Positions 18,728-55,392 of a stretch of DNA of 64,000 nt are shown here, one piece after another. The notes below the pieces were generated by a model. The model did not search any database and was not told where the DNA came from. It saw only the letters and a list, made by a program, of their open reading frames with translations. Every line of letters begins with the position of its first letter. Position 1 is the first letter of the stretch. Source of the stretch: Eledone cirrhosa (Eukaryota); assembly GCA_964016885.1 (NCBI GenBank), contig OZ024748.1, positions 53,630,001 to 53,694,000 on the forward strand. Direction: 5' to 3'. Both the position numbers and the translations under genes were made by a program.

Positions 18728-18762
18728 CCTGATATTTCGAGATAATATCTCTTCTTCAGAGG
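18728..18762 (-). ncRNA. Minimal type I hammerhead motif
   Basis: Minus strand cct-CTGAAGA-agagata-t-tatctc-GAAA-ta-TC-agg; within a ~290-bp unique island between (TA)n runs. Confidence 0.55.
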
Positions 18763-20394: not shown

Positions 20395-22330
20395 TCCCTA
20401 TCATCATCAGTAACATCACCACCACCAACATCATCAGTAACATCACCACCACCACCATCATCATCAGTAACATCACCACCACCACCATCATCATCAGTAA
20501 CATCACCACCACCAACATCATCAGTAACATCACCACCACCAACATCATCAGTAACATTACCACCATCATCATCAGTAACATCACCCCCCCCCCCCCATCA
20601 TCAGTAACATCACCACCACCACGACCATCAGTAACATCAGCACTACCACCACCACCACCAACATCAGTAATATCACCACCACCACCATCATCATCAATAA
20701 CATCATTGTGTTATTGCAATGAGTTTAGAAGGGTCTCATGTGAAATGAGCCCCTCCTAATGTCATTGGGAAGGCAATGATAGATGATGACATTGATGTCA
20801 GTGGTGGTGGTGGTGGTGGTGACATTGATGTCAGTGGTGGTGGTGGTGGTGGTGGTGGTGGTGACATTGATGTCAGTGGTGGTGGTGGTGGTGGTGGTGG
20901 TGACATTGATGTCAGTGGTGGTGGTGGTGGTGGTGGTGACATTGATGTCAGTGGTGGTGGTGGTGGTGGTGGTGGTGACATTGATGTCAGTGGTGGTGGT
21001 GGTGGTGGTGGTGACATTGATGTCAGTGGTGGTGGTGGTGGTGGTGGTGGTGACATTGATGTCAGTGGTGGTGGTGGTGGTGGTGGTGACATTGATGTCA
21101 GTGGTGGTGGTGGTGGTGATGATGATGATGATGAAGGTGGTGATGGTGACAGTGATGGTGATGACAACGATGGGGACAGTGATGATGGTGGTGGAGATGA
21201 AAATAATAATGAAGACGGTGATGAAGGTGGTGGTGGTGGTGGTGGTGTTAATGATGATGATGACTAATCCCAGTTATCTTAACAGGTGATAGTACTCATC
21301 TAGTTATCACTTCTTTCCTCTCCATCTATCCATTCGTCTATCCTTTATTCCTCCATCCACTTCTATATCCCTCCATCCATCCGTTTGTCCGTCTCTCCAT
21401 CCCTCTATCCTATGTATCACCCAATATTATAAACTCCTACTGTATAAGAAGAGCTGGCCAGCACCACCACCTCCACCACTGTCACTACTGCCACCACCAC
21501 CACCTCCACCACTGTCACTACTGCCACCACCACTACCACCACCACCACTGTCACTACTGCCACCACCACCACCTCCTCCACCACTGTCACTACTGCCACC
21601 ACCACTACCACCATCACCACTGTCACTACTGCCACCACCACCACCACCACCACCACTGTCACTACTGCCACCACCACCACCTCCTCCACCACTGTCACTA
21701 CTGCCACCACCACCACCACTGTCACTACTGCCGCCACCACCACCACCACCACTGTCACTACTGCCACCACCACCACCTCCTCCACCACTGTCACTACTGC
21801 CACCACCACTACCTCCTCCACCACTGTCACTACTGCCACCACCACTACCTCCTCCACCACTGTCACTACTGCCACTACCACCACCACCACTACCACAACC
21901 ACCACCACCACCACCACCACCACTACCGCAACCACCGCCACCACCACCACATCCCCCAGTGACACCTCTACCTCCTCCACTGCCACCACAACCACCGCCA
22001 CCACCACCACCACCCCCAGTGACACCACCACCACCACCACCACTACCACAACCACTGCCACCACCACCACCACCACCACCACCACCACAACCCCCACCAC
22101 CACCACCACTACCACAGCCCCCAGTGACACCACCACCACCACCACCACTACCACAACCACCACCACCACCACCACAACCCCCACCACCACCCCCACCACC
22201 ACCACCACTACCACAGCCCCCAGTGACACCACCACCACCACCACCACTACCACAACCACCACCACCACCACCACCACCACCACCACCACAACCCCCAGTG
22301 ACACCTCTACCTCCTCCACTGCCACCACAA
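20395..22330. repeat. Cluster of CAC/GTG-based minisatellites (catcagtaacatcaccacc; gacattgatgtcagt(ggt)n; cactgtcactactgccaccacc)
   Basis: Direct inspection; three blocks with alternating strand bias. Confidence 0.9.
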
Positions 22331-22816: not shown

Positions 22817-22867
<51 letters not shown>

Positions 22868-22922
22868 ATATATATATACACAATATATTAATAAATGGAA
22901 ACTATATTTATAAAACCATAAT

Positions 22923-22988
22923 TATTTTATTATATATATTTCAAGGGCGACCAAGGTAAATTATGGTGCGCTTTCATCAGATAAAATA
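22923..22988 (-). ncRNA. Type I hammerhead ribozyme (family A, antisense arm)
   Basis: Reverse complement gives tattttat-CTGATGA-aagcgcacca...tggtcgccctt-GAAA-tatata-TA-ataaaata. Confidence 0.8.
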
Positions 22989-23126
22989 CAGATTTGTTTT
23001 CTAAATAAATATTGACATACCCGGAAAAAAGACAAACTCAACGGTTGAAATTCGCTGGATAGTATTTCAACCTTTGAGGTTGTCTTTTTTCCGGGTATGT
23101 CAATATTTATTCATAAAACAAATCTG

Positions 23127-23194
23127 TATTTTATCTGATGAAAGCGCACCATAATTTACCTTGGTCGCCCTTGAAATATATATATAATAAAATA
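23127..23194 (+). ncRNA. Type I hammerhead ribozyme (family A, sense arm)
   Basis: tattttat-CTGATGA(23135)-aagcgcacca-taatttacct-tggtcgccctt-GAAA(23173)-tatatata-TA-ataaaata. Confidence 0.82.
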
Positions 23195-23329
23195 ATTATG
23201 GTTTTATAAATATAGTTTCCATTTATTAATATATTGTATATTTACTCCACTAACTTGTTGAGTGCTTGTAATCAGTTATAAACATTTTTAAGTTTGTTGA
23301 ATCCCAACAAATTAAATATAACCTCTGCA

Positions 23330-23404
<75 letters not shown>

Positions 23405-23477: not shown

Positions 23478-23635
23478 TCATCATCATCATCATCATCATA
23501 CGTCCGCTTTTCCCTGCTTGCAAGGGTGGGACGAGAACTGATTCTGGCTTGATTCCTACAGCTGGTTGCCCTTCCTAACACCAACCTCATTTACAGTGAG
23601 TGCTGGGTGCTTTTTTTCCGTGGCACCTACACGAC
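23478..23635 (-). mobile_element. 3' fragment of SINE family C
   Basis: (CAT)n-cgtccgcttttccctgcttgcaagggtggg... Confidence 0.8.
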
Positions 23636-23649
23636 ATATATATATATAT

Positions 23650-23966
23650 CCATCCTCCCACTCCCACCAACACCATCCTTTCTCTGTAAAGTTATGTTGG
23701 TACCACAACATCTAATGAGGTCATGTAGGTGTCATGGCAAAAAAAAAAACACAGTCCACACTGTAATGTGGCCGTGTAGGTAATACGCTAAAAAGCTCCC
23801 AGTCTACACTGGTTGGTGTTAGGAAGGGCATCCAGCCGTAGAAAACCTGCCAGACAGTCCTATATACGAGCGAGACACGGTCACCCAACCAATCTTGCCT
23901 CAAGTGGGACAATTCCCGTCTAACCCATGCTAGCGTGGAAGATAGACGTTAAACAATGATGATGAT
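23650..23966 (+). mobile_element. RTE LINE 3' UTR fragment
   Basis: Homologous to the reverse complement of 62715-63030; (TGA)n tail. Confidence 0.8.
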
Positions 23967-24812: not shown

Positions 24813-25200
24813 ATCATCATCATCATCATTTTACGTCCACTTTTCCCTGCTTGCAAGGGTGGGACGGGAACTGATTCTGGCTTGATTTCTACAGCTGGAT
24901 GCCCTTCCTAACACCAACCTCATTTACAGTGAGTGCTGGGGGCTTTTTTGCCGTGGCACCTCCACGTCCACTTTACAGTGTGGGCTCGGTGCTTTTTTGC
25001 CGTGGCACCTCCACGACCACTTTGCAGTGGAATGATAGGGACTCCAGACCCTGTCATCTCATTTCTACAGCTAAGTAAACTGGAGCAATGTGAAATAAAG
25101 TGTCTTGCTCAAGGAAACAACACATCACCAGGTCTGAGAATTGAACTCACAACCTTTTGATTGCAAGGCCAATGCTCTAACCACTAAGCCATGTGTCTCC
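24813..25200 (-). mobile_element. SINE family C with two copies of the internal hairpin unit
   Basis: Reverse complement of the 7330 type; gccgtggcacctccacg occurs twice. Confidence 0.9.
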
Positions 25201-25779
25201 AGTAATGTAAATTCTAATGGGTTAAGGTAACCTCCCATTGTCCAGATCATGGATGGGATCAGTGGCAGATTTTCTATTGGCCCCATATAGGATTCTAAAG
25301 GTAAGCTTAAACAGCTTCCATATTCTTTTCCAGTGGACAATAGCTTTGTATATATGTGTATTCTACAACATATTTCAAATAAATAGATGTTTATTTTTAA
25401 ATATTTGTTCATTTATAACATTATTCTACATTTATGTTAAATTTTGTTTCACATCGCTTTATTAAATTTGAAATTTGTATAAGCCATTGAACAATAATGC
25501 TAAATAAAAGAATACAATTTTTACATCAACTTACATGTTGTTCGTTAAGAACAACATCAACTTACATGTAGTTCATTAAGAACAACATAGAGGTGCTTTG
25601 GAAAAGATGATCTTACAGAGCCAACTAGTTTTATATTAAAACCATATGTTTAAGTTACTATATTAGTAATGAAATAATTAGTAATTTTGGTAAATCCTAC
25701 AAAGTTCTTCATTAATTAATTGAAAGAGTGTATTTCATTAGAAAGATGGCAATGGAAATGTTTACTCAGGGTCAACAAA

Positions 25780-54792: not shown

Positions 54793-55392
<600 letters not shown>

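Follow-up and report, generated by a model that had tools for sequence, protein, structure and literature searches.

Probable 5'-truncated insertion of a Hydra-clade Penelope-like element with two head-to-head hammerhead motifs in a (TA)n tract of Eledone cirrhosa

Penelope-like elements (PLEs) of the Hydra clade were described by Craig et al. 2021 (PMC8557442), in whose account nearly all families have (TA)n as their insertion site and possess a hammerhead; in the 25 families listed in its file S2, stem III of that hammerhead starts with AC in every case. For the minimal hammerheads of PLEs, a palindromic helix III has been proposed to pair two ribozymes, and hammerheads on opposite strands, 100-700 bp apart, were previously reported in metazoan PLEs (PMC4209133). 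A tail on one end of the insertion is a known PLE trait (PMC8557442, PMC3846280), and in the PLE of Anolis the tail is presented as the interval between two internal RT start sites (PMC11167929). The role of the hammerhead in these elements is called an open question in the texts of PMC8557442 and PMC11167929.

We analysed a window of 64,000 nucleotides (the whole stretch of DNA presented here) from the Eledone cirrhosa genome, which is 3.0 Gb in size with large chromosomes. The first-pass annotation, made from the letters alone, had described at this locus a ~170-bp inverted repeat with an intact CTGATGA/GAAA core in each arm, and this was confirmed: the fold-back spans 22873-23244 between two (TA)n tracts, and its arms, 22873-23051 (minus strand) and 23064-23244 (plus strand), align over 179 bp with 173 identical bases, the differences being 6 bases and one 2-nt indel within a TA run. 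The 12 unpaired bases between the arms are native element sequence and part of the left arm. In each arm the motifs follow in the order TATTTTAT, CTGATGA, a 31-nt stem II region, GAAA, (TA)4 or (TA)5, and ATAAAATA.

The insertion is flanked by (TA)n microsatellites of period 2, the insertion target, at 22818-22878 (31 copies, left) and 23329-23399 (35.5 copies, right). Between them lie an inverted, 5'-truncated copy of the pseudo-LTR (pLTR) end (22879-23063, minus), whose outer end is the 'short' site ~50 nt downstream of the predicted ribozyme cut, and a direct 5'-truncated pLTR-end copy with a full tail (23064-23328, plus), whose end is the 'long' site ~142 nt downstream of its own predicted cut. 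The left copy holds a type I hammerhead motif with a (TA)4 stem III at 22923-22988 (minus; predicted cut between 22931 and 22930). The right copy holds one at 23127-23194 (plus; predicted cut after 23186), composed of stem I (23127-23134/23187-23194), CTGATGA (23135-23141), stem II with its loop (23142-23172), GAAA (23173-23176) and (TA)5 (23177-23186). The tail of ~90 nt (23237-23328, plus) is present in this single arm only and continues, in tandem copies, into the 5' UTR and ATG of an RT-EN ORF.

A genome search with the right arm returned 2,934 candidates, the best 40 of which were scored and were all 94-96% identical except the window's own copy. By manual count, 24 of these 40 had an adjacent inverted copy; the same layout also appears in PMC8557442, PMC3846280 and PMC4209133, and the fold-back with head-to-head hammerheads noted in the first-pass annotation is nothing special, being the inverted 5' copy that PLE insertions usually have. 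When longer copies were followed upstream, a low-complexity 3' region gave way to a GIY-YIG domain and then to an RT. Among 30 loci fetched by 3'-region DNA (reference locus excluded), 8 ran from a GIY-YIG part through ~1.9 kb to the ribozyme region, and the linked ORFs contained YRDD, a CNCRNKSNC linker and, at the C terminus, GIY-YIG. At the other side, the tail directly preceded an ATG in 23 of the 25 loci retrieved with the start of the ORF, with the whole ribozyme there in 15 of the 25; it extends into a short 5' UTR, followed by the ATG of the RT-EN ORF. The link to an RT/GIY-YIG ORF, together with the tail before the ATG, identifies the repeat family of the fold-back (family A) as the pLTR of a Penelope-like element.

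Several features of the linked protein correspond to those of the Hydra clade: VKSDKT (DKG changed to DKT) and LRWRA (RWR, not RWK) at loci L095-L097, and CNCRNKSNC (the CxCx5C linker), CSFCVEE (CxxC) and CKH (CxH) at locus L069. The protein has no CCHH, its GIY-YIG core is without a cysteine pair, and compared by eye it resembles the Hydra alignment rows shown in PMC8557442. The (TA)n insertion target and the presence of a hammerhead within the pLTR are further traits of the clade; its tendency towards units of '<3 kb' is not followed, the ribozyme-to-ribozyme distances being 3,772 bp (L267) and 3,676 bp (C1:12383285/12386961), with the length beyond 3 kb consisting of 3' UTR. A sister subfamily, D, has at L267 an RT-EN frame that is open over 672 aa and lies between two direct pLTRs in the 3,772-bp unit; the family A protein is 71% identical to that of subfamily D over 395 aa. 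For the subfamily D protein a database search gave 372 homologues at E ≤ 1e-20, nearly all of them without a name; the best among those with a name was an argonaut protein (39%), and a Pfam scan of three linked ORF pieces returned 0 families. Judged by these protein diagnostics, which match those given in PMC8557442, family A is a Hydra-clade PLE.

The family is very abundant, with tens of thousands of copies in the clan and many subfamilies. In the literature we found neither family A nor a (TA)n stem III described, though subscription papers, Repbase and bioRxiv supplements may hold either. We class it as a new and very abundant family within the known Hydra clade of PLEs; its fold-back, tail and (TA)n target are known PLE traits. 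Subfamily D (L223-L272, e.g. L263-L272, G000:C1) looks very young, with thousands of near-identical ribozymes, long open RT-EN frames (L267) and identical arms in 9 of 15 pairs. Other PLE-like frames occur near family A copies: locus L031 has a YVDD-type RT and a separate GIY-YIG frame (495-2237 and ~2900-3670, minus strand), and L087:4224-5240 holds another Hydra-like EN frame. A PLE-like RT ORF near L031, ~7 kb away on the other strand, was not counted as linked.

In the window, all five hammerhead copies of the first-pass annotation (at 6560, 9711, 13429, 22923 and 23127) were found at the places given, with CTGATGA and GAAA intact. The element at 6503-6810 is a family A member with an inverted, hammerhead-bearing arm (6560-6625, minus) and a direct arm reduced to the tail (6709-6810). 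Two others are each of a sister subfamily, one at 9652-9919 with an inverted hammerhead arm (9711-9772, minus) and a direct tail, and one at 13370-13872 (plus) with a direct hammerhead arm (13429-13489) and unrelated DNA inserted at ~13512-13779. We also found a sixth member, absent from the first reading, as a fold-back at 5104-5302; it lacks a hammerhead because the fold-back is truncated downstream of the ribozyme. Core-pattern matches numbered 19 in the 64-kb window, 5 of them from family A, and full motifs numbered 7 (5 from family A, 2 from other families); 100 local shuffles gave 0.02 such motifs on average and never more than 1.

The window contains further repeats of related and other kinds. 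An unrelated family contributes a head-to-head hammerhead pair at 31770-32260 (cores 31847 minus, 32185 plus) with the stem III palindrome ACTAGT, and this family also occurs upstream in locus L002. A third head-to-head pair, at 46810-47130 between TA runs (cores 46904 minus, 46979 plus), has the stem III ACCA-C-TGGT, resembling the published Hydra-1_Obim stem (acca-a-tggt). More CTGANGA...GAAA motifs, some with clear stem II hairpins, lie at 3579, 18735-18759, 30951, 46567-46589 and 52436 and are probably other PLE families. Long CCA/ACT-rich minisatellite arrays with strong strand skew occupy 20400-22300 and 36370-44400, and 20787-21128 is, in type, the reverse complement of 21457-22283. A second interspersed repeat, abundant, SINE-like and often (CAT)n-bounded, is present at 7324-7660, 12700-13016, 23480-23960, 24820-25212 and 54796-55151, with arms 88-93% alike.

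The motifs of the fold-back have the CUGANGA and GAAA core, the NUH site and the three helices of a type I hammerhead. For comparison between subfamilies we used 18 representatives (4 window copies and 14 from 39 clusters). Stem III self-pairing, in the palindromic 15.2-16.2 region, was found in 100% of cells (central pair U-A in 12 and U-G in 6 representatives), in agreement with the earlier reading of a PLE-type hammerhead with a palindromic stem III. Other parts of that reading needed amendment. Stem III consists purely of (TA), with a length that differs between copies: the one at 23127 has (TA)5, the remaining four have (TA)4. The 8-bp stem I of TATTTTAT and ATAAAATA is found in three of the five copies, with a U-G pair (ATAGAATA) at 9711 and 13429. 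The change in stem II from U-A at 9711 to C-G at 23127 was confirmed, but in the 23127-type stem an additional, bulged pyrimidine sits next to the pair, so that the inner pairs shift register.

Stem II is ~9 bp long and has a C-C mismatch at its fourth position that recurs in most subfamilies. The conserved G10.1-C11.1 position of PLE minimal hammerheads is A-U in family A, and across the 18 representatives it was A-U in 10, G-U in 4, G-C in 3 and unpaired in 1. The energy model predicts an internal loop in stem I, past which the stem could be extended by 11-12 bp (23108-23119 with 23201-23212, plus strand); loop II varies freely, and no tertiary contact between loops 1 and 2 was identified. 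A scan with hammerhead models, proposed as a check in the first-pass annotation, gave no support: Rfam returned no hammerhead among 11 hits in 22880-23330 (E ≤ 10), and none among the 150 of 359 whole-window matches listed. The Rfam hits that were found were only chance miRNA matches to repeats, and the stock models may not cover this hammerhead variant.

Stems I and III contain only A-U pairs. As an 8-nt palindrome, stem III fits an 8-bp helix between two ribozymes, predicted to be weak in trans at -3.2 kcal/mol, and for a single arm alone the active fold was predicted 2-3 kcal/mol above the minimum-energy fold. Such a marginal active fold would fit the low or protein-assisted activity described for PLE hammerheads (PMC4209133, PMC11167929). 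Cleavage in cis as a dimer of the two arms was ruled out, because the two ribozymes lie on opposite strands and cannot pair within one transcript. A transcript through the element is predicted to form one hairpin of -262 kcal/mol, pairing the entire sense ribozyme except two bases; with the ribozyme buried in a ~180-bp hairpin, the head-to-head layout is predicted to silence it rather than to supply a dimer partner. The many head-to-head pairs with near-identical arms genome-wide would, if they are transcribed, yield long double-stranded RNA on which A-to-I editing or small-RNA silencing could act.

The first-pass annotation had suggested that the ribozyme was under selection in the source elements, and the contrast between core positions N7 and G8, the two-sided changes in stem II and the pairing of stem III bear this out. 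In hammerhead numbering N7 is the free position of the core. A genome-wide pattern search gave 9,005 matches in which N7 is not T, occurring in blocks of identical sequence, and 345 scattered matches in which G8 is not G under the same flanking pattern; N7 was the only core position seen varying between subfamilies. Among the 18 representatives 94.7% of cells pair, and 7 of the 9 stem II pairs were changed on both sides, with 28 two-sided cells against 9.2 in shuffles (0/500); the pair of the first reading was U-A in 13 and C-G in 4. For the structure as a whole, two of five measures, those of pair count and pair type, did no better than shuffles (143/500 and 445/500), and the remaining ones are inflated by related sequences. 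Core columns were invariant in 12 of 12 cases and flank columns in 2 of 35, a difference partly built in because most representatives were picked with a pattern demanding the core.

Copies found by BLAST gave a mixed answer to whether the core is any more conserved than its flanks, the test named in the first-pass annotation. In subfamily A, core decay was lower than that of the flanks (9/976 vs 122/5826, p=0.011); in B/C it equalled that of the downstream flank (9/720 and 20/1583). This is roughly what is expected for dead copies. Taken together, the sequence comparisons support selection on the ribozyme at the level of the source elements. All changes in stems I and III were A-to-G; RNA is subject to A-to-I editing, and such editing could also feed these changes. 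A block after stem I, at 23195-23236 (TATGGTTTTATAAATATAGTTTCCATTT), matches the ribozyme in conservation in most subfamilies and holds TATAAATA ~30 nt before the short end site; it is possibly a promoter or protein site.

A stem III identical to the (TA)n target had been called unusual, which holds in that it occurs in 0 of 25 published Hydra families, so that the ATATATAT stem III is new for the Hydra clade as published. Identity with the target, in turn, is not needed, since the ATATGTAT form, with a tandem U-G wobble, is very abundant and also inserts into (TA)n, and since insertions hardly ever end at the cut. Genome-wide, ATATGTAT had 21,031 matches and ATACATAT, its mismatched strand-mirror, 108, both counted with patterns limited to the motif's 3' half; A-to-G editing acting on the source RNA could contribute to the imbalance. 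Inspection of 12 ATATGTAT loci showed that all had the core and passed into (TA)n at the usual two downstream sites, and the tree requires at least three switches between the ATATATAT and ATATGTAT forms. Copies that go from stem III into a longer TA tract numbered 14, of which 3 were slippage and 11 ended at the cut site, as against 3,249 copies running through it, and the cut therefore does not set the insertion ends. Use of stem III DNA as a self-target for nested insertion was considered for the 14 copies and rejected, as 11 had no remainder within ~1.5 kb downstream and the other 3 were TA slippage. We infer that the (TA)4 stem III is a small variant serving self-pairing, not targeting.

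The actual ends were mapped in 239 distinct copies anchored on the 3' side of the ribozyme. The (TA)n began 40-69 nt after the predicted cut in 117 and at the long site, 120-159 nt after it, in 92; of the remaining copies, 26 had no TA run within 260 nt and 4 ended elsewhere. Head-to-head pairs (n=52) comprised 37 with one long and one short end, 3 with two ends of the same type and 12 unclassed, one of which is probably two separate insertions. Among classed pairs, 37 of 40 were thus long+short (p=2e-8), as is the 22879-23328 element, with a short end on the left arm and a long end on the right; without the loci fetched by full-length BLAST the counts were 25 long+short and 2 same-type (n=36). 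Two fixed end sites with one type per arm match the Anolis system as presented in PMC11167929, in which the tail is defined by two RT start sites.

In 38 of 46 pairs the two arms resembled one another more closely than they did the family median, indicating that both derive from one source and disfavouring arms drawn from randomly paired RNAs. The fold-back centres vary from copy to copy. In 14 of 28 mapped copies (44 examined) the 5' end falls 65-83 nt upstream of the core, and these clustered truncation points (window 23051-23064, L119-L162) may mark a strong RT stop or an RNA 5' end; several of them are joined to (TA)n via TATCC.

The element at 22879-23328 is, with high probability, a 5'-truncated Hydra-clade PLE insertion in (TA)n that consists of two head-to-head pLTR ends, each with a type I hammerhead motif that is likely to have served in self-cleavage of the element RNA as a weak, dimer- or protein-assisted ribozyme. 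In such an insertion the GIY-YIG endonuclease would nick (TA)n, and the RT would start inside uncleaved (or re-ligated) RNA at two sites, one per target strand; both cDNAs would stop early and then join head to head, though one cDNA might instead be copied by snap-back. The 8-nt palindrome would build helix III between two ribozymes, and would read (TA)4 because the element is AT-rich, not because of a need to match the target. The copy at 22881 would be a dead by-product, as its transcript is predicted to fold into a long hairpin blocking the ribozyme.

Other explanations give the hammerhead region a different task. If the (UA)4 3' end of the cleaved RNA annealed to nicked (TA)n and primed insertion, stem III would be a targeting device. 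The 5' cleavage product would indeed end in UAUAUAUA, stem III leads into (TA)n in 11 genomic copies that have no remainder within ~1.5 kb, and such a stem is present in none of the 25 listed Hydra hammerhead families. Those 11, however, stand against 3,249 copies running through the site and could stem from deletion or from priming at any internal TA run; the ATATGTAT form used the same two downstream (TA)n sites in 12 of 12 inspected loci, nearly all Hydra families in PMC8557442 target (TA)n with AC-starting stems, and ribozyme mutants of the Anolis PLE are reported to have left insertion unchanged (PMC11167929), which together make targeting very unlikely. We consider it equally improbable that the conserved block is a DNA- or RNA-level protein-binding site or a TATA-like promoter element and the hammerhead inactive: several subfamilies conserve the 30 nt after stem I about as well as the core, for a rotifer PLE a TATATATA box has been put forward as a pLTR promoter (PMC3846280), and the active fold is predicted to be marginal, but the variation obeys the rules of a ribozyme (N7 free, G8 fixed, compensatory changes in stem II), and core and stems are kept in distant subfamilies with different flanks.

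The palindromic stem III might instead join two element RNAs in a protein dimer, one RNA per target strand, and so yield head-to-head long+short insertions, with cleavage secondary. Self-complementarity kept through at least three switches although the cut does not define the ends, the long+short type of 37 of 40 classed pairs, and an Anolis PLE protein predicted to be a dimer and reported to extend both strands (PMC11167929) all speak for this. Derivation of both arms from a single source (38 of 46 pairs; in the young subfamily, 9 of 15 pairs have identical arms) suits one tandem RNA or snap-back equally, though, catalytic G8 is also conserved, Naiad PLEs are described with the same inverted structures and without canonical hammerheads (PMC8557442), and the trans stem III duplex is predicted to be weak (-3.2 kcal/mol), so that we regard the proposal as quite unlikely. 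Pairing through the palindromic stem III would have an analogy in the retroviral kissing loop. On this analogy, stem III would be an RNA-pairing signal that brings two pLTR RNAs into one RT-endonuclease dimer, each strand being primed on one RNA (+50 and +142) to give a head-to-head product with a one-sided tail, and in a minor route a cleaved (UA)4 end would prime on (TA)n; this version, too, is unlikely. An origin as a foldback or MITE-type DNA transposon, or as an artefact of assembly, has hardly any probability left: a long inverted repeat does lie between TA runs, but fixed terminal inverted repeats without a link to an RT were not what we found, the arms being unequal and differing at 6 bases and an indel, the fold-back centres differing between copies, and the sequence being the 3' end of an RT element, whose linked RT ORF refutes this origin.

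With a truncated PLE insertion as the preferred reading, the locus itself is ordinary, because the element type, fold-back, (TA)n target and ribozyme had all been described already. The clan is of wider use: it gives unusually clear genomic evidence that the core chemistry and stem III self-pairing were selected, though the cut sets no insertion ends, and it offers natural variants together with two sharp RT start sites.

Compared with non-LTR retrozymes (PMC7229834; bioRxiv 10.64898/2026.07.22.740005), family A shares short non-coding units, a type I hammerhead and a relation to PLE pLTRs. Retrozymes as described in PMC7229834 form head-to-tail tandem arrays, whereas 22879-23328 is a head-to-head truncation product without a same-strand ribozyme pair; head-to-tail tandem units with a ribozyme were not found in the 64-kb window, the arms there being head-to-head. 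With PAc, the Poseidon PLE from Anolis (Frangieh et al. 2024, PMC11167929), it has in common two internal RT start sites downstream of the ribozyme that define the tail, insertions not ending at the ribozyme cut, and an AT-rich target. PAc belongs to another clade, and its start sites are reported to lie inside the ORF with no target homology, in contrast to family A, whose end sites lie before the ATG with 2-5 nt of TA at the junction.

The minimal PLE hammerheads of Cervera and de la Pena 2014 (PMC4209133) are likewise of type I, with a long helix II and a palindromic helix III predicted to act as a dimer, and are described with many subfamilies showing compensatory changes and with opposite-strand pairs. 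Relative to that description, family A differs in having A-U at 10.1-11.1 (in sister subfamilies G-U or G-C), a stem II with no clear unpaired base in front of it (after A9), a helix I of 8 bp with a possible 11-12 bp extension, and a helix III palindrome of 8 nt.

The closest match is the Hydra clade (PMC8557442), which includes Hydra-1_Obim (Octopus bimaculoides) and Penelope-13_HM. Its published features shared with family A are the C-terminal GIY-YIG without CCHH, the CxCx5C linker, DKT, RW[K/R], flanking CxxC and CxH around a conserved E and N, (TA)n insertion and a pLTR hammerhead, and for Penelope-13_HM an inverted 5'-truncated copy is noted, as in family A. Family A departs from the clade as published in its ATATATAT or ATATGTAT stem III (AC start in 25 of 25 listed families), its unit of 3.7-3.8 kb (vs 'generally <3 kb') and its tail of ~90 nt (vs 30-40 nt), and further in its stem II of ~9 bp with a conserved C-C mismatch and its tens of thousands of copies. 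Hydra-1_Obim, compared by eye with its representation in PMC8557442, is distinct from family A in ribozyme and N-terminus.
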